Assembly: GCA_951406725.2 (NCBI GenBank)
Contig: OX597829.1
Location: 47,368,001-47,432,000, forward strand
Source of the DNA: Octopus vulgaris
Lineage: Eukaryota
DNA length: 64,000 nt
Direction of reading: 5' to 3'
Shown: positions 27,761 to 40,330 of the stretch, in pieces
Layout of the letters: each line of letters begins with the position of its first letter
Position numbering within the stretch: the stretch's first letter is position 1
The notes under the pieces: generated by a model
What the model was told of the DNA's origin: nothing
The model's input: only the letters and a program-made list of their open reading frames with translations
The model's database searches: none
Program-made: the position numbers and the translations under genes

Positions 27761-28005
27761 GTTGTTATTATTATTATTAGAACTATATATACATATCAGA
27801 ACTTACGCGTTGATATATTCATACGCACGTGTTGGGAGCCGGAAGTAGGGCGCTTTTAAACAAACTGTTTATCGAATATCACTCACAAGGCAATGGTTAA
27901 CCTGGGGCTATATCGGAAGACATTTGCCCATTATGAAATGAGATCGACTTCGGAATCACGTGTTTCGCCTTTACTCTACCATTTCTCCCTTTATTTTTTG
28001 TAGGG

Positions 28006-28043
<38 letters not shown>

Positions 28044-28767
28044 TTCTTATTTTTCGTTATTCTGTCCTCCCCCTTTTACCTATCTGCGACGCCACCGACC
28101 GACTCCAACGTATCTTTTCTTTTCCCCCCCACCATTTTCTTCTTCTTCTAATTTTCCTCTTTGCTTCTTTTCTTTGTCCGTTTTTTTTTTTTCACATTAT
28201 ACTTATTTTGTTCTCCCCCCCCCTCCCAGAGGTCACTACCTGACCTAAGAGGTCGTTAAAGTATATTAGATTTGTCAGGTTTCCGTCTAGGTTTCTCAGT
28301 TATTCGAGTATTCTCGTCTTTTTTTCCATGTGTATAGCTTTTGTTCGTATGTCTGTTATGTTATTGACAGTGTCCTTTCAAATGTGTGCATTCCCTTAGA
28401 TCTTTGCCTTGCACCGTGTTGTTATTGTTGTTGCTGTAATGTTTAACAGTCAGGCTAGTGAAATAGATATTGGCTTCTTTCTTGATCGCGAGTTTGCATT
28501 TCGGTCATTTACTTTGTATTCAATTGTCCAAATACTTACAATTTTCTCGATTAAAGCTAATTATTTTTTTTTCTTGTAAATTTCCTTTTAAAGTTTTCTT
28601 CTAAAACATTTTATATTTTTCATTCATAACTCGTTTAAAAATACATAAAATTGTTTTACGTCCAGTCTTAATTTAATTACTATAAAGTCATCTAAATTCT
28701 TTTCCATGTTAAATTTCTTCCCCACCCCACCCCACCCCACCCCACCCTTTACTGTGTTTAATTATCC

Positions 28768-29002
28768 GTTTCTTTATTACCCACAAGGGGCTAAAAACAC
28801 AGAGGGGACAAACAAGGACAGACAAACGGATGATTAAGTCGATTACATCGACCCCAGAGCGTAACTGGTACTGAATTTATCGACCCCGAAAGGATGAAAG
28901 GCAAAGTCGACCTGGGCGGAATTTGAACTCAGAACGTAACGGCAGACGAAATACGGCTACGCATTTCGCCCGGCGTGCTAACGATTCTGCCAACTCGCCG
29001 CC
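28768..29002 (-). mobile_element. SINE-B full length
   Basis: Flanked by tgtttaattatc repeats (TSD-like, duplicated on the right). Confidence 0.9.
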
Positions 29003-29462
29003 ATCTTTGTTTAATTATCGACTGTGTTTAATTATCGACGCCAACCTTCAGTTTAACATTCCAAAGAAGGTTAAAGATCAAATGAATACCTGTAATATAC
29101 CGAAAGAAGCAGATTCAGTCCCACGATCTCTTCCTAACAAAAAAGCATTTCAGATTTGACTTCCACGTTATTAAAACATTTGTTTATTTTATTTACCCAC
29201 CCATGCACACACACTTCTATTCTTCGCCACTGGAGTAATCCTTCATCCAGCAGAAGCCAATTGATACCAGTAATTTACTCATCGTTTCACTTTGTAAACT
29301 GATCTTGTTTGGAAGATGCGATAAAATCGTATTCGTTTTATCGGAATAGACTGACGCCAAATCTCACTTAATCCTGATCAGGGTGGTGGTGGTGGTGGTG
29401 ATATTCCATTAGTACCAGACCTGAACTACCTCACTTTCCCTATCTCTCTCCACATCCTACCT

Positions 29463-29607
29463 CTACATACATACATACATACATACATACACACATACAC
29501 ACATACAGACACACACAGACACACACAGACACACAGACACACACAGACACACAGACACACACAGACACACAGACACACACAGACACACACAGACACACAG
29601 ACACACA

Positions 29608-29648
<41 letters not shown>

Positions 29649-30230
29649 ACAGACACACAGACACACATACAGACATACAGACACACAGACACACATACAG
29701 ACACACATACAGACATACAGACACACATACAGACATACAGACACACATACAGACATACAGACACACATACAGACATACAGACACACAGACAGACATACAG
29801 ACACACAGACAGACAGACACACACATACAGACATACAGACACACATACAGACATACAGACACACACACAGACAGACAGACACACACACAGACAGACAGAC
29901 ACACACAGACAGACAGACAGACACACAGACAGACAGACACACACACAGACAGACAGACACACACACAGACAGACAGACACACACACAGACACACACACAC
30001 ACACAGACACAGACACACACACACACACACACAGACACACACACACACACATACACATACAGACACACACACACACATACACACACACACACACACACAC
30101 ATACAGACACACACACACACATACACACACACACACACACATACACATACATACACACACACATACACATACATACACACACACATACACATACATACAC
30201 ACACATACATACATACATACATACACACAT
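29463..30230. repeat. Long compound CA/CAGA/CATA microsatellite (~770 bp)
   Basis: Read directly; source of the 262-308 aa C/V-rich pseudo-ORFs. Confidence 0.97.
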
Positions 30231-30749
30231 ATCATTAAACAATGCGCTTTTAGTATGAGCAATAAACACATGGAAAAGAAAATGGATGCGCGACTGAGAT
30301 AGGGAGAACAGGATTGTTTACAGAGTAATCCAATGTTTTGACCATTCTTCAAGGGGTTACTTCTTTATGATTTTATTTCTATTTAGTTTTTATTTAATTT
30401 TATCTTTATTCGTTTTTTTTTTTACTTATACATTTTTCGTTCGCGCAAAAACCATTAAAAAAAAAAAATTAAAAGGACCCTTTTAAACATCTTGACATCA
30501 TACCATGTATGGCACCATATCAAAGAATCACAACAGACTATCTCTTTTAAGGCTCAGAGAAATATCCTTACTCTTATCTGTGGCCATCTTTTTCGGTTCA
30601 AGATATTTATTTGTATGAAAAAGATCATATCAAGGTAGTTCAGTCGAAGGATAGTGTTTAGACATTGAAACTGAGAGGAGCAGGATGTAGGTTTTAGTTT
30701 TTTTTTTTTTAAATTAGGATGTAGGTTTTAGTTGGTTTTTTTTAAAATT

Positions 30750-31168
30750 ACTCTTACTCTTTTTTACTCTTTTACTTGTTTCAGTCATTTGACTGCGGCC
30801 ATGCTGGATCACCGCCTTTAATCGAGCAACTCGACCCCGGGACTTATTCTTTTTGTAAGCCCAGTACTTACTCTATCGGTCTCTTTTTGCCGAACCGCTA
30901 AGTAACGGGGACATAAACACGCCAGCATTGGTTGTCAAGCAATGCTAGGGGGACAAACACAGACACACAAACACACACACGCATACATACATATATATAT
31001 ATATACATATATACGACGGGCTTCTTTCAGTTTCCGTCTACCAGATCCACTCACAAGGCTTTGATCGGGCCGAGACTATAGTAGAAGACACTTGCCCAAG
31101 GTGCCACGCGGTGGGACTGAACCCGGAACCATGTGGTTGGTAAACAAGCTACTTACCACACAGCCACT
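30750..31168 (-). mobile_element. SINE-A near full length
   Basis: Reverse copy, near consensus. Confidence 0.92.
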
Positions 31169-31684
31169 AATTTATTACATTAAACTTCTCTTACACACAT
31201 CAACATACAACACATACAGACATTACTTTTGTCTCGTTTAACCAGTTCTCTCGTCAATCTATGGACATTACAAAGTGATTTACGACTACCAGTTCAATCA
31301 CATTTCTTAAATATAAATATGAATAGCTTGGGTCTGTTAAATAAAACCCAGTGTTCATATTTTTAAAAAAATGGTTTTGTGCCATTTTATTGTAATTCAA
31401 AAAAGGGGTGAAGATGCTTCAAAAGCGCAGAACTAAAATTGTCTTGAAACATCTAGTCTGATATTAAGATTGGCTTCGTCTTTTGCATTCCCTTAATCGA
31501 TAAGATATCTATTACATTGTTTAACGAATCACATATTAAACTTGATCAACGTAGGGCTATCAAAATTTTCCGGTCAAAAATTCCGTCCTTTCTTTCTTAA
31601 AAAAAAATGTAACACTGTAATATTTAATATTAAGACGGTCTCAGATTGACTGCTATATCTAACACGCTGAGCAACAACTTGAGT

Positions 31685-31823
<139 letters not shown>

Positions 31824-31899
31824 TGACTTTTAGTGTACTGGGTCCCCTAAATTTCAGGCTTTGTGCTTATAGTAAAAACGATTATTATCATTATTATTA

Positions 31900-32110
31900 A
31901 GGTGGCGAACTGGCAGAATTGTTAGCACGCCAGGAAAAATGCTTAGCAATATTTCGCCTGTCATTCCGTTCTGAGTTCAAATTCCGCCGAGGTCGACTTT
32001 GTCTTTCATCCTTTCGGGGTCGATGAAATAAGTACCAGTTGAGTACTGAGGTCAACCTAATCGACCAAACCACTCCCCCCAAAATTTCAGGCTTTATGTC
32101 TATAGTAGAA
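31900..32110 (+). mobile_element. SINE-B (tail 2) with ATT/ATC tail
   Basis: ggtggcgaactggcagaa...cccccaaaatttcaggcttt. Confidence 0.88.
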
Positions 32111-32754
32111 ATTATTATTATTATCATCATCATCATCATTATTATTATTATTGTGGAAACCCGCAGAAGTAGTTTTCGTTGAAACTCTCCCTCGATGTAG
32201 TTTTAATTTGTTTTTGTGTATTGAGAAAATGCTCATTCCAGATACTTTGTATATACAATGGAAATACTTGAAGTCTAGTACAGCACTTCTTTGAATACCA
32301 CTCATCACTTTTCATTAACAACAATTTACCTTTTTTTAATGACATCTTAGGTTCTGTTAGTACGTATGCTAATATGGACATATGTATGTGTTTATAACAC
32401 ACACACACACACACACATACACATATACATATATACATATATACATATATATATAAGAACTTTTGTGTTCATTCATCCATCATGGTCTTTCATTGTTACT
32501 ATTACTGTTGTTATTGTTGTCATAGAAAAGGTGGGGGGGTTTCTTGCTTCTGTTGCGATTGTTATAACTGTAGTTGTCATCTGGCATCTGCCATAGAAAA
32601 ATAAGCCTTTAATTATTTGCTGTCATCAAGGTACAAGCAGCATGTCGTGGAAGCAGGTATTCCAAGAATGTGCCACATATCTATTTTAGAGGCTATGGTT
32701 GTAGTAGTGGTAGTGGTGGTGGTGGCGGCGATAGTATAGCAATGACAACAATTG

Positions 32755-33437
32755 TAAAGTGTTACGAATTTTTGACAGGAAGAAACCCAATTTGTCTGAA
32801 TTGAACCGAATATTTTACAGGTATTTTTGCTTTACTGATTATTCCCATTGGCAGTATGGAAAAGCCTGTTAAATCAAACCAATGTATATGATATTCGGGA
32901 ACTTCCCCCTCTAGAATTTCTAAATTTTCAAATAGACGCTTGAAATTTTCTAAGGTTTAAAATTGCGGTTGTTGGCGTGATGACAAATCGTTGTCTACTA
33001 ATATTCCCAGAGTATCGAGTTAGTTCGACAAGTTTAAAGTATCCTTTTCTAAACTTTCTGAGCACAAATGACAATGCCAGAGTATTGTTCCCGAATATCA
33101 TAAAGTGTTACGAATTTTTGACAGGAAGAAACCCAATTTGTCTGAATTGAACCGAATATTTTACAGGTATTTTTGCTTTACTGATTATTCCCATTGGCAG
33201 TATAGAAAAGCCTGTTAAATTAAACCAATGTAATATGATATTCGGGAACAATATCATATTGGCATTGTCATTTGTGCTCAGAAAGTTTAGAAAAGGATAC
33301 TTTAAACTTGTCGAACTAACCTCGATACTCTGGGAGTATTAGCAGACAACGATTTGTCGTCACGCCAACAACCGCAATTTTAAACCTTAGAAAATTTCAA
33401 GCGTCTATTTGAAAATTTAGAAATTCTAGAGGGGGAA
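32755..33437. repeat. A-B'-A-B duplication/inversion
   Basis: Direct repeat 32755-32902 / 33101-33249; inverted repeat 32903-33102 / 33234-33437; a few substitutions between copies. Confidence 0.93.
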
Positions 33438-33554
33438 ATCAAGTTGAGAAATTATCATTATTCATCCCTATTTTGGCTAGTTGTACTAATTTTAAGCATC
33501 TTTAAAAATCAACATAACGCTGTTAACTTTTACAAGACTGCTATTTTCTTATAA
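33101..33554 (+). pseudogene. Decayed C-terminal half of an A32-like (FtsK-HerA) viral DNA-packaging ATPase
   Basis: Frameshift-tolerant read: QVFLL/TDYS/IGSIEKPVKLNQCNMIFG[R]QYHIGIVICAQKV*KRIL*TCRTNLDTLGVLADNDLSSRQQPQF*TLENFKRLFE...NAVNFYKT; collinear with A32 motifs (Walker B, GRH-hhhh-Q, RTNxD, F/WYK). Confidence 0.55.
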
Positions 33555-33681
33555 GTAGGAGTTGTAAATCGAAATGGGGAAGCTGAAAAGATTTTAGGTG
33601 TATTGTAATTCACTTGAAGCATTGCAATTTGTATAAATATAATGGAAAAGAAAAATACTTTTGAATTATGCAGATGAGAAT

Positions 33682-34029
33682 TTAGGCAAAATATATGCCA
33701 ATAACTGGAAACAAAATATATTGTATTACTTTACATAGGCCGTTACATGTTATATTTCGGGAAAGGTTCTCCTTTTCAAATATTTTTTTAAAAATCGGAG
33801 AATATAGGATCTTTAAACAATTATGTAAGCTAAGGAAATTATATATTTCCCCTTTGTTTTCATTTGGTGACATCACTTTGTATATTTTACCTGACTTCTC
33901 AACTGCATTGCGCAAAGACATTTTTCTTCCGAACATATCGTATTTTTTAAAAATAGGTGTTGAATAGTAATCTAATAATAATTTTCCCTCACCCCATTTT
34001 GTATTGGCATATCGAAAATTAATAATCAC
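33682..34029 (-). other. 115-codon K/N/I/Y-rich open frame convergent with the ATPase relic; possibly a second viral gene remnant
   Basis: Long ORF not explained by microsatellite or SINE; no motif recognised. Confidence 0.25.
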
Positions 34030-34403
34030 TCTTTGCCGAACTGCACTATTATCCTAGTAGATAGATGCAATTCACTCATAGCTGTGAATGAAAACATAAG
34101 TATTTTCTAAAAAAAAGAGTATATTGCAAGGCTGAGAAGTTCATCTTCATTGTAGAACAATCTAGAAAAAAACAACGTATGTGGTGTGATACTAGCGTAC
34201 AAACGATGTACCTACTGTTTTCTAAAACTGATCTTGATTTGATGCGTTCAGTTAGATCTACGTACTATCACACAAATGAAAGAATGATATTGCTCCAACG
34301 TGGTTATTCGACATGCTAAGCATAGTAATCAAATCTTCAAATCGAACTTTGACCTTATAATCAGCTTGATCGTAGTCGAGTTGGCTAAACATGAGCATAT
34401 GCG

Positions 34404-34455
<52 letters not shown>

Positions 34456-34547
34456 TTCTCTCTCTCTCTCTCTCTTACATTCTCTCTCTCTCTCTCTCTC
34501 ATACACACACAAACACATACACACGCACACACACAGTTCTGGTTTAA

Positions 34548-34770
34548 CCCTTTCGTTACCAACCCGACTGAAACCGCCTCTGGCTCTGTAGTACAACTGT
34601 CTTGTTTTCAAAAGTTCTGAATTAAAATCTTCCACCAAACCTTAGTCACAATTTATGTTCCTAACACTAGCTTAATGATAACCAAGTTATTTTACTAAAT
34701 TCTTTGTTATATTTAAAAATTAATTGTAAGAAACACAGAGCATCTCAACAGAAATATGGTAACAAAAGGG
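34548..34770. mobile_element. piggyBac-type MITE
   Basis: TTAA on both sides (34544-34547, 34771-34774); TIR ccctttcgttacc / ggtaacaaaaggg. Confidence 0.85.
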
Positions 34771-35489
34771 TTAAGATTAATATCAGTTACATACTAGGTA
34801 GATTCAAACAATACTTAGAAAACAATACGAGAACCTGACCAAAAGAAATACAAAGCTCTTGCGTTTCTGAAAAGCTGGATAATACGATCGAGGCTATAAA
34901 TATGAATTATTCAGGTCACTATTTTGAAGATTTGGTTAATTTCTAGTGGTTTACAACTGAAATATGGTGACAAAAGGGTTAAACCCCCGATCAACTTTGA
35001 CTGAGCAGACATGACGAAAGACGGCTCAACCAGAATAACTTAATTTCGTTTCACTTTTTCAGAGATTGCGTTCATCAGACCGTTATGTTCTCCACCATCG
35101 TTCTTTATTTTACTTTTTTTTTTATTTCTTCATTTATTTTGCTTTAGACAATAAGGATAAGGTTTGAGGTTTATTTAATTGTTATTTCTAGCACGAATAA
35201 CTACATAGCAGTTTCACATTGAGCTTTTTTGTAATAGTGGGTAACAATGAGTAAGACTGTGAATCACATGAAAGAAGAAAAAAGAAAGAAAGAAAGCAAA
35301 TGACAGACAGATGTGACAGGTTTAGATTGACGGTTGAACAGATCGATATTTGGTGGAGCGTGTGTACTGAGGATAAACAACCAAAACCATGTGATGGACT
35401 GACAGACTTACTGACCGGCAAACAAGAGAGGCAATGCCAACTGACACTTCAATCACAATATGCATACACATACGTTATACACGATGATA

Positions 35490-35927
35490 CGTGTCTGTGT
35501 GTGCGTGTGTGTATATATGTATATGTGTGTGTGTGTGTGTATGTGTGTATATATATATGTGTGTGTATATATGCGTGTGTGTGTGTATATGTGTGTGTGT
35601 ATATGTGTGTATGTATATATATATATATATGTGTGTGTGTATGTGTGTGTGTGTGTATATGTGTGTGTGCGTGTGTGTATATATATATGTGCGTGTGTGT
35701 ATATATATGTGTGCGTGTGTGTATATATATGTGTGCGTGTGTGTATATATATGTGTGTGTGTGTATATATATGTGTGTGTGTATATGTGTGTGTGTATAT
35801 ATATATATGTGTGTGTGTGTATATATATGTGTGTGTGTGTATATATATATGTGTGTGTGTGTGTATATATATATGTGTGTGTGTATATATATGTGTGTGT
35901 GTGTATATATATATGTGTGTGTGTATA

Positions 35928-35974
<47 letters not shown>

Positions 35975-36130
35975 ATTTGTGAATGTGTATATGTGTGTGT
36001 ATTTGTGAATGTGTATATGTGTGTGTATTTGTGGATGTGTATATATGTGTGTGTGCGTGTGTGTATTTGTGGATGTGTATATGTGTGTGTGTGTGTGTGT
36101 GTATGTCGAAATATTGCGTGTATGTATATA
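35490..36130. repeat. Long compound (TG)n/(TA)n microsatellite
   Basis: Read directly. Confidence 0.97.
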
Positions 36131-36630
36131 TGCATGCATGCATGTATAGTGGGGTGTGTATGTGTGAGTAAACGTTTACGTGTGTGTGTATTTATACAGG
36201 CACTACATATAGGTACAGCAACGGGAAGCATTCCCGCTATCCGGGCATTATTTGCTGTCAGTGATGTAAGCGTCTTAGCTTAGCTCGGTATCTTCAGCAA
36301 ACGACTATCACAAGAGATTAAAATAGACCGGCTCCTTCCTATCCTTTATCTCCTCCCTCTCTGTCCCTTTTCCCATCGCGCTCTCCCTTTTTCTCTCTCG
36401 CGCGCTCTCCATTTCTTCCTCTTTCTTCCTTCATTTCTCTCTCTCCATTTTCCCCTTTTCCCCTCTGTCTCTCAACTCTCTCCTTTTCCCCCCGCTACTC
36501 TAACATGTTTCTTTGTTTTATTACAGTAGTTTATTCGTTTTTCCTTTATCCTCTTCTTTCGTTTTCTACACACAAAACACCGAGGCCTTTCGCGACACCC
36601 TTAAAGCCAAGCACTTTCAATACCCCTTCG

Positions 36631-36702
<72 letters not shown>

Positions 36703-36707
<5 letters not shown>

Positions 36708-36922
36708 AGGTACTGAAAAGTTCTTGACTTTGGATAAAAGAATATACAGGACGATCAGTTAATTAATGACTTTAATTAACATATTCCCCTCTCAGGTTCA
36801 CATACTTATTGCAGAGTGTCCTTCAGTTTTTCTAAGCCCTGTAAAATGAACCCGTAAAATTGGGCCTCCAATCTGGTCTTTCGCGACACCCTTAAAGCCA
36901 GGAACTTTCCAGCTCCCTTTCG
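36703..36922 (-). mobile_element. Mariner-derived MITE, same family as 25644; extra terminal fragment at 36583-36631
   Basis: aacatattcccctctcag (reverse of transposase end) and gacacccttaaagccaggaactttcc...cg followed by TA. Confidence 0.7.
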
Positions 36923-37140
36923 TATAACCTTTACAGTTCTACAAAACTGATATCACCTATGTTCGTTACCTAAACAAATTCAGGTCAAAATGCTTCTGCT
37001 TGCCCCAGCAAACTCCCTACTTGTGGTATTATTGATTTTGTTTCAGCCGAAATCGACTCTAATTACGCAGACAAAGCATCAAAACGGCTCGGTCATAACC
37101 ATTCGGATTTTTTGCTAATTAATGCATTAACACTATATAT

Positions 37141-37364
37141 ATTTCTTTATTGCCCACAAGGGGCTAAACATAGAGGAGACAAACAAGGACAGACAAAGGG
37201 ATTAAGTCGATTACATCGACTCCAGTGTGTAACTGGTACTTAATTTATCGACCCCGAAAGGATGAAAGGCAAAGTCGACCTCGGCGGAATTTGAACTCAG
37301 AACGTAACGCAGACGAAATACCGCTAAGCATTTCGCCCGGCGCGCTAACGTTTCTGCCAGCTCG
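37141..37364 (-). mobile_element. SINE-B
   Basis: Near-consensus reverse copy. Confidence 0.92.
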
Positions 37365-37512
37365 ATATAATCCGAGAAAATGATGTAGCGGGGCTTTCCT
37401 TTTTTTTCTTTCTTTTTGTAGTTTGGGCCCACCTGGCAACGATACATGACTTGTGCAGCGTAATATGGCGACCCATAAACTAAATACAGAAATTACATAC
37501 ATAATATAGTCG

Positions 37513-37679
37513 CAGGCATGATTATGTGGTTAAGAATCGGTTTCGCAACCACTGGTTTTGGGTTCCGTCTCCCTTCGTGACATTTTGAACCAGTGTCTTT
37601 TACTATAAATCCAAACCAACCAATGCCTTAGAAGAGAATTTCGTAGACGGAAACTTAAGTGGAAACCACTTCCGCGCGC

Positions 37680-37724
<45 letters not shown>

Positions 37725-38125
37725 CAACCAAATGGCTCCGGGTTCAGTCCCACTGCGTGGCACCTACATTGAGCGAGTGTCTTCCACTAAAGCCTCGGAC
37801 CGACCAAAGCCTTGTGAGTGTGTGTATGTGTGTTTATCCCCCAACTATCGCTTGACAACCGATGCTCGTGTGTTTACTTCCCCGTAACCTAGCGTTTCGG
37901 TAAAAGAAACCGATATGTAAAAGACTATATATATTATTGCGTTCACATGCGTGTCTTTATTTCTCCAACTCACCGCCGCTTGACAGCTGGTGTTGGTGTG
38001 TTTCGCTCCCGTAAACTAGCGATTTGACATAAAAAAAAGTGCCGGGATTGATTTGATCAACGAAACCCTTCAAGGTGGTACCTTAGCATTGCCGCAGTCC
38101 AATGGCTAAAACAAGTCGAAGAATA
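37513..38125 (+). mobile_element. Nested or degenerate SINE-A pieces
   Basis: Old head 37513-37680, younger copy 37722-37915, old tail 37940-38125. Confidence 0.65.
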
Positions 38126-38302
38126 ATGAACTCACTAGCATTAATGGCAATTTGTGTAAAACGCAGACTAAGTGTATTAAAGGTTGGTCTAGTCGGTACA
38201 TCGATCCAAAGCCTGGAGATTCAAGGGGTGGGGGGCGGGGGTGACCCGTAAATTCATGAAATTAAGGCGGCTCCCCTCTTCTTTCTGGGAAAAGGGGAGA
38301 TG

Positions 38303-38628
38303 TGTCCCACTGCGTGGCACCTTGGGCAAGTGTCTTCTAATATAGCCCCGGACCGACCAAAGCCTTGTGAGTGGAGTTGGTAGGCGGAAACTGAAAGAAG
38401 CCTGTCGTGTATATGTATGTATGTGTATGTGTTTGTCCCCCCAACATCGCTTGACAACCGATGCTGGTGTGTTTACGTCCCCAATACTTAGCGGTTCGGC
38501 AAAAGACACCGATAGAATAAGTACTAGGATTACAAAGAATAAGTCCTGGGGTCAATTTCCTCGACTAAAGACGATGTTCCAGCATGGCCACAGTCAAATG
38601 GTTGAAACAAGGAAAAGAGTAAAAGAGT
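38303..38628 (+). mobile_element. SINE-A, 5'-truncated
   Basis: gtcccactgcgtggcaccttgggcaag...aaaagagtaaaagag. Confidence 0.9.
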
Positions 38629-39944
38629 ATAATTTTAAACATTTGCCTACTACATGTGAGTATGCTAACTCAGACTGAAGTGGGTCTTTCATGCGGAGGA
38701 CATCCCTGAGAAATTAAAAGAATTATTCCATGCTACATTCACAGTTGGTTTTTTTTTTTTTTTTTTTTCCACTTAGTTATAGTATAAGGTACTGCGTGCT
38801 CGTGTGGTGGGAGCCATGAATGTCACACAATCCACACTCGCGGTTTCGATAGTTATTGTAAAGTAGGTCACTGGATGGCAGGTAGGTTGGTTGGTTGGTT
38901 GGTAAGTGAGCCGAAACAAACTAACAATGAAACAAATGAACGAAGGAAGAAAAAAGAAAAAAAAAGAACGAGGGTGAGGGATGAATGCGAAATAAGTTGA
39001 GGGTGGGGGGGGGGGGGGGGAAATAGAACAGAGGTAAAAAGCCTGTGAATGAGAGAGAGAGAGAGAGAGAGAGAGTGAGTGATGGAGGGAGAGGTGGAAA
39101 AAATAAGAAGGAAATAGGTGGGTATAGGATGAGAAAACGAGGAAAGAATCGCAAACGATAGGAATAGAGAAAATAAACAGGTTGAAGAGAGAGAGAGAAA
39201 AGGTAATTCTGACTGTAGTATTATCATTACTGTACATGAAACAGAAAAGTGAGCGAAGCGGGAGAAAATGAAGGTGAGCGAACAACTAAAAAGCAAAGTA
39301 ACGGCATAATTAAAAATAGTGAAAGGCAAAACTAAATAAACCGTGAAAAGAAATATTTCAGAAACAACAGAAAAAAAAACAAACTATATATTAATGTGAG
39401 AGAAATACAATGTAAGGGAGAGAGATGTAGTGAGAAAAAAAAAATACTGATTGAAATAATATATTATATGAAAATGCGGCAACAATAGAAAGTGTGTTTT
39501 TCTTTTAATTTAGTAAAAAAGATCGATTCTGTTTCATCTGATCGTATCTTGACATGTGAGCCTTTACTTGGCAAACGAGGTTTCTATTTTTTTTTTGTTT
39601 TTCTTTTTTTTTTGTTTTATTTTCTTTGATCCATTTCGGGGAGTAATGTTCCTGCAACTGTTAAATTTCCATGTTACTTTCTCTACTATGTTGGGTTGGT
39701 ATGAAGTCTGCGAATATTTTATAGAAGCAGGTATAAAAAGAGATACCTTTCAGGTTCCTCTCGGATGCACACGTGACGTAAACGATATTCAATTAATGTT
39801 ATACAATGTTATACATTGTTATACAATGTTATACAACAAATTCTAGACAATTATAGCATATTTTTGGTCGACAGACTTTATGAAATGAACAATCTAATCT
39901 AAATGGGATCACACCCACTGGTCTTAAAAGGAAGACATTATCTT

Positions 39945-40330
39945 TTATCTTTCAGTTATTAGACAGCGGCCATCCTGGGGCACCGGCTTGATTTTAAAAA
40001 AAAAAGTTTCTTTAATGGAATGAGTCGACCCCAGCTCTTATTTTTTAAGCCTGGTACTTATTCTATCAGTCTCATCTGCCAAACCGCTAAATTACAGGGA
40101 CGTAAACATACATACCAACAGGGGTTGTCAAGTTGTGATGGGGTGAGGTGGGGGACAAACATAGATATACACACAGATAAATATACATATATATACGAAG
40201 GGTTTCTTTCAGTTTCCGTCTACCAAATGCACTCACAAGGCTTCTGTCGGCTCGAGGCTGCAGTAAAAGACACTTGCCAAGTTGCCATTAAGTGGGACTG
40301 AACCCAGAACCACGTTGTTGGGAAGCAAGC
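39945..40330 (-). mobile_element. SINE-A, diverged
   Basis: gtacttattctatc, cagtttccgtctaccaaat, gtgggactgaaccc. Confidence 0.8.

Follow-up and report, generated by a model that had tools for sequence, protein, structure and literature searches.

The window is a 64,000-nt stretch of the Octopus vulgaris assembly, which comprises 2.8 Gb in 227 contigs; it lies 47 Mb along a contig of 58.8 Mb. It contains an A32-like stretch of single-locus DNA, preceded by a young duplication with an inversion and followed by a miniature inverted-repeat element (MITE) and a single-copy flank. Parts of the A32-like stretch occur in public runs from six coded organisms, and four of the runs were examined (X2, X4, X8 and X14). 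The features, numbered from the first letter of the window, are as follows.

32755–32902, plus strand: young direct copy of 33101–33249 (146 matches, 2 mismatches, 1 gap)
32903–33102, minus strand: young inverted copy of 33234–33437 (196 matches, 3 mismatches, 3 gaps)
33101–33604, plus strand: A32-like stretch, single-locus, non-repetitive and 5′-truncated, with stops and frame changes; GC 32%
33226–33267, no strand: DNA hairpin (quasi-palindrome), −8.6 kcal/mol, z −4.1, with 0 of 200 shuffles as stable
33249–33551, plus strand: main frame, 101 codons with three stops, carrying a hydrophobic strand with Q, RTNLD, WLVVL and FYK
33605–33935, no strand: dispersed MITE, a foldback with long TIRs, internally deleted and with a shortened right arm
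33682–34053, minus strand: convergent open frame, 123 codons from stop to stop
33940–34400, no strand: single-copy flank common to runs X2, X4, X8 and X14

The surrounding window is rich in microsatellites and repeats. A dispersed repeat of ~160–200 nt, which we take to be a SINE family, lies at 31904–32065 and at about 30 other places in the window (32 BLAST pieces, 73–88% identity). An element at 34545–34983 is bounded by TTAA-CCCTTT and AAAGGG-TTAA, ends that are presumably piggyBac-like, and has an inner repeat of its right end at 34746–34774. Microsatellite tracts at 29355–30364 and 35255–36283 give rise to spurious ORFs of 240–340 aa in several frames. Rfam models had no match within 28000–40000.

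The MITE accounts for 52 of the 55 genome matches to 33104–34100, which fall on 33592–33936 on both strands at 67–86% identity (40 of 73 candidates scored), and contigs pile up on it in all four runs examined. An alignment of eight repeat copies places a common start at 33605 in seven of them and in the window. The family, which we assume to be Mutator-like, consists of many dispersed copies of ~450–500 nt with arms of ~200 nt and no coding capacity; compared with these copies, the window MITE is missing its centre and the outer part of its right end. About 83 of the 123 codons of the convergent frame, roughly two thirds, lie in the MITE. This frame matched no Pfam or NCBIfam family, reached E 0.17 in PHROGs and had a best score of 0.83 in the Atlas, where recognition was below family level. 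An earlier note had put forward its 115-aa portion (33682–34029) as a possible neighbouring viral gene; as it is mostly MITE and matches no family, we judge it to be a chance frame instead.

The flank beyond the MITE (33928–34401) is fairly stop-poor on the minus strand, with 6–9 stops in 153 codons on two of its frames. A match to Pox_RNA_Pol_22 in one of the six frames of the right flank (E 0.013) was rejected because vaccinia PDB chains were unmatched and chance genome matches scored higher, and a supposed likeness to the D5 helicase did not agree in its spacing and gained no support.

Motifs and decay of the A32-like stretch

The main frame is interrupted by stops at 33288, 33303 and 33381, and its motifs IGIVICAQ, RTNLD, WLVVL and FYK follow one another on the plus strand in the order of A32 ATPases. 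In IGIVICAQ, a hydrophobic strand ends in a glutamine that aligns with the conserved sensor glutamine; RTNLD provides the R-x-N motif ~10 residues past it, and coincides with invariant columns in an alignment with 12 viral A32-like ATPases. The glutamine strand, RTNxD and late F/W-Y-K motifs described in the earlier note are therefore borne out in their order, in one plus-strand frame. Over the whole of 33101–33604 (167 codons) only 6 stops interrupt the main frame, whereas each of the other five frames contains 9–14.

[quoted passage not shown] Walker A (G-x4-GK[ST]) is absent from all six frames of 30500–33250, in agreement with the earlier note, and because of this absence an ATPase-like remnant could neither bind ATP nor work. 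The contig of run X14 has the same upstream flank, so the loss of the Walker A region would be old.

Neither a DD Walker B nor the finger arginine, which the earlier note had restored by assuming a 1-nt deletion, is read in any frame. For Walker B (hhhhD[DE]), no DD or DE form is present, and the only counterpart is a hydrophobic run with TD near 33170–33190, which the aligner did not set on Walker B. The arginine finger is presumably the one in the GRH motif of the reference ATPases; here, a G and an H flank a frame break near 33245–33254, with no R between them in any frame. Three frameshifts had been invoked in this region. The pieces do lie in three plus-strand frames, but the first shift is unneeded, as YFCFTDYS near 33170–33190 is read by the main frame itself.

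Alignment, profile and database searches

Reference sequences were fetched by a motif that the fragment itself carries, yielding ~78 giant-virus-type ATPases from viral contigs; 4 of 80 loci were dropped for their length or a missing Walker A, and 40 of 120 loci gave no full ORF. Twelve viral A32-like ATPases are colinear with the main frame at 16–22% identity over 101 residues, a likeness too slight for building a tree. Six of these 12 references match Pox_A32, and the other six, all intact, miss it at E 0.01. A profile built from the 12 finds the solved packaging NTPase B204 of STIV.

With the giant-virus profile, the main frame ranks first of 1,284 fragments of the window, but at 5.8 bits and E 0.43, and chance matches elsewhere in the genome reach 13.9 and 11.7 bits on the same profile, above the main frame. 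An hhalign comparison gave a probability of 4%, and the best BLAST score against 200 reference ATPases was 27.7 bits. As regards the RecA-like fold, AlphaFold models had a pLDDT of 46 for the fragment alone and 47 with the 12 references, both too poor to use.

Frameshift-aware alignment to the giant-virus profile gave a local score that was reached by 1 of 150 shuffles. The end-to-end score from Walker B to the C terminus of the giant-virus-type model had z 3.5–3.8 and, under three penalty sets, was matched by a single tile of the 248 in the window and by none of 200 shuffles. Inclusion of Walker B in the model weakens the significance, with 15 of 1,010 genome bins scoring as high (~4 per 64-kb window). 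With a core model, chosen post hoc, none of the 1,010 bins was as high, a result that still allows about one match per four windows. The core-model score of 6.9 compares with a control mean of −16. Intact ATPases of the Maverick type, which are true but distant relatives, have a median score of 2.5 on the same model, and 99 of the 120 score below the fragment. Five top control bins were inspected; in four, much of the score comes from residues translated from microsatellites, and RTNxD is present in none. The matches of the fragment lie on family-conserved residues, at family spacing, over ~95 codons; of the near-invariant reference columns it keeps only 8 of 28, and 3 of the 9 strongest. The patterns RTN[ILV]D and Q-x9/10-RTN[ILV]D, picked after the sequence had been seen, have no occurrence in 263 kb of control DNA from the same genome. 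Together with the paucity of stops in the main frame, this places the motifs modestly above chance.

Standard searches for relatives returned no ATPase close to the fragment. The X-read frame had no significant match in Pfam (including Pox_A32), PHROGs, NCBIfam or the PDB, and a word-index search of longer proteins gave none among 40 candidates. A phmmer search over 1.84 billion proteins found one match, to a bacterial-type leucine-rich repeat, which was rejected; in a search made with an alignment, the best 120 of 8,000 matches were all giant-virus-type, with at most 33% identity over 40% of the query. Among viral contigs, one of 14 candidates matched, but only in a frame antisense to a phage tail gene, and was rejected, and further scans of viral contigs (0 of 600), metagenomes (0 of 261) and prokaryote genomes (0 of 150) gave nothing. 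Motif scans for a closer subfamily found 3, 1, 48 and 4 stretches, none of them an ATPase.

Within the genome, both DNA and protein comparisons of the stretch found nothing beyond its local copies. Pox_A32 gave six weak genome matches, which by eye are five 3′ ends of LINE-type repeats and one uridine-kinase-like exon, and a giant-virus A32 query gave six matches at E 0.5–7, none resembling 33101–33604. The NCLDV capsid family (PF04451) and pPolB (PF03175) each had 0 matches in the genome, weak results, since their controls also matched nowhere; these genome searches give lower bounds. Among 58 of the longer ORFs of the window there was no credible Pfam match (two weak ones, E about 0.007), no other viral gene and no pPolB or retroviral-like integrase family. 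Measured against the refuting conditions named in the earlier note, the reading does not come through cleanly: Pox_A32 gave no significant match, and an intact relative was found neither in this genome nor in the collections searched.

On balance, and with modest confidence, we favour the reading of 33101–33604 as the dead 3′ half of an A32-type (FtsK–HerA) packaging ATPase gene of a double-jelly-roll DNA virus. The C-terminal half of an A32-like packaging ATPase, as put forward in the earlier note, is the best reading found; its support comes from the custom alignment, with no significant match by standard means. A serious alternative, to which we give appreciably less credence, is a chance likeness in single-copy, AT-rich non-coding DNA, arising from a few short motifs, the free choice of frames and the hairpin, from which part of the finger motif would derive. 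It accords with the blank database searches, with the 15 bins that equal the long model and the genome's higher chance matches on the profile, and with the absence of Walker A, the DD, the finger arginine and any other viral gene in the 58 ORFs or the genome searches. Yet coincidence would also have to produce a core-model score unequalled in 1,010 bins, a glutamine–RTNxD pattern unseen in 263 kb, conserved residues at family spacing over ~95 codons, and a depletion of stops in exactly the main frame.

For the Maverick question, a Maverick/adintovirus-type set was assembled from an ATPase on a viral contig and its relatives, 120 proteins of which many lie on large contigs and one is named from a coral; the set is one clade, and its Maverick-type label was assigned by inference. 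Among the Maverick/PLV-type seeds, viral contig L157 (197–1391) carries an A32-like ATPase adjoining a cysteine-protease-like ORF, and L156 one adjoining the end of a capsid-like ORF, as judged by eye. The Maverick-type profile scores the fragment at chance, with 74 of 150 and 83–126 of 200 shuffles as high, and a mixed profile is at or near chance. RTN occurs in one of the 120 proteins and Q..RxNxD in none. Element-type TIRs, a 6-bp target duplication and multiple copies were not found, the inverted repeats in 31500–35500 being the local duplication and small elements. The Polinton/Maverick part of the earlier claim finds no support, the profile scoring at chance.

A remnant of a host-lineage Maverick, Polinton or Polinton-like element, from a clade whose ATPase carries RTNxD, would be a sub-case of viral origin, and we regard it as rather unlikely. 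The germ line is reached far more easily by integrating elements than by giant viruses. The reference set represents one clade only, and PMC10294476 reports Mavericks, from automatic libraries, for every mollusc genome that it analysed, among them two cephalopods. These points are set against a profile at chance, the lack of Q..RxNxD in all 120 proteins, the single locus, and a search for pPolB that found none, with a control that matched nowhere.

A decayed piece of some other gene, such as a host pseudo-exon or a transposase resembling A32 in a few residues, is improbable: one stop-poor frame is what any former coding sequence would leave, but neither DNA nor protein searches of the genome found a paralogue of the stretch, and it has no family match and no relative among the 1.84 billion representatives.

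Duplication, inversion and age of the locus

The hairpin at 33226–33267 overlies both the supposed arginine-finger motif and the two template-switch points. Because of this overlap, the two halves of the finger motif are partly one DNA sequence in inverted form. The adjoining duplication with inversion (32755–33102) was missed in the earlier note. Its direct and inverted copies are each ~1.5% diverged, and are arranged as a duplication, an inverted 16-nt triplication and a second duplication, 346 nt in total. This arrangement probably arose through two template switches during replication.

Other organisms carry the locus without this duplicate, on which three of the four runs bear (X2, X4 and X14). 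One contig of run X4 (organism B) skips exactly the 346 nt, and run X14 (organism E) has a single copy of the stretch. In run X2 (organism A), contigs break at the borders of the duplicate, where the depth inside is 102 compared with 50, depth being a weak measure, and one contig crosses the 32902/32903 junction with 58 and 30 letters on its two sides. The duplication is younger than the stretch and was seen only in organism A.

The stretch is integrated in a host chromosome with orthologous flanks, as seen in single contigs of X4 and X14. The X4 contig contains the stretch and the common flanks at ~98% identity. X14 is the most distant run, with the stretch ~92% identical; one 1,614-nt contig contains the stretch, the MITE and both flanks at ~92–96% identity. 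That contig dates both the stretch, in its 5′-truncated form, and the MITE to before the split of organisms A and E. Among the X14 differences listed, 14 could be placed, and they fall on codon positions 1, 2 and 3 as 3, 5 and 6, with no sign of selection and as expected for neutral DNA. The stretch is old and probably neutral.

These contigs also bear on the very improbable case that the inverted duplicate is an assembly artefact or the whole stretch foreign to the animal. In its favour, none of the contigs listed runs through the entire stretch, the X2 junction contig has sides of 58 and 30 letters, one short of the bridging rule, and the assembly itself may derive from X2 or X1. Against it, single contigs from X4 and X14, two other organisms, connect the stretch to flanks of host type, the stretch lies 47 Mb into its 58.8-Mb contig, and the duplicate copies differ by ~1.5%, with X2 contigs breaking at the duplicate borders and about twofold depth inside (102 versus 50, a weak measure).

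Proposed origin and known systems

If the stretch is the ATPase remnant that we favour, a piece of viral DNA would have entered the germ line once, before the A/E split, either as such or as part of a larger insertion of which it is the remnant. The captured piece may have lost its 5′ half or never had it, and so could not bind ATP and would have no present function. It would have drifted neutrally, and the MITE would have landed beside it. At a later time, and in organism A's lineage, 346 nt would have been copied, part of it inverted, by two template switches at the hairpin. More tentatively, the source may have been a double-jelly-roll virus lineage that is unsampled, has a giant-virus-type ATPase and no close sequenced virus, and infected this animal group, the cephalopods, before the A/E split; this is a possibility rather than our expectation.

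If the viral reading is right, the fragment, itself without function, would put a date on a DNA-virus lineage to which nothing closely related has been sequenced, from hosts whose DNA viruses are little known, and could serve as a query for less decayed copies in kindred genomes. Fossil viral ATPases are already familiar from animal genomes. Template-switching rearrangements are familiar too, and the hairpin-centred miniature duplication-inversion offers a datable example of them. No publication on a cephalopod A32 fragment was found in the literature searched, which covered few subscription papers.

The duplication has the order of DUP-TRP/INV-DUP rearrangements formed by iterative template switching, namely duplication, inverted triplication and duplication with two junctions (compare PMC11293582). 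Such rearrangements extend over kilobases to megabases and involve inverted low-copy repeats, whereas the present one measures 346 nt and involves a local hairpin and 0–2 nt of microhomology.

Fragments of viral core genes in eukaryote genomes are established, with Hydra, Exaiptasia and Daphnia among the animal entries of PMC5294986; ‘octopus’ and ‘mollusc’ have no occurrence in its main text. The octopus stretch resembles such NCLDV fragments as an isolated core-gene fragment in a host chromosome. They were found, according to PMC5294986, by significant BLAST matches, and the present fragment is below that level.

Endogenous Mavericks and adintoviruses are likewise established in animal genomes, bivalves included, in passages of PMC8502044, and their FtsK-like ATPase, of the same superfamily and endogenous in animals, is the point of likeness. 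Their ATPases have RxN without the RTNxD form that the fragment carries, and the fragment is a single locus where no pPolB, integrase, capsid or element-scale TIRs were found. We would not class it among the Mavericks, and would class it as an A32 pseudogene only provisionally.

Compared with the A32-like ATPases of the Nucleocytoviricota (Pox_A32, PF04665), the fragment is 16–22% identical, lacks Walker A, the DD and the finger arginine, has one extra residue between the Q and the R, and is marked by stops and frame changes, with no linked core gene found. It shares with them the order and spacing of the strand with its glutamine, RTNxD, the late strand and [FW]YK, and in its motif it is likely to stand nearer to this RTNxD type of the giant viruses than to the 120 Maverick-type proteins.
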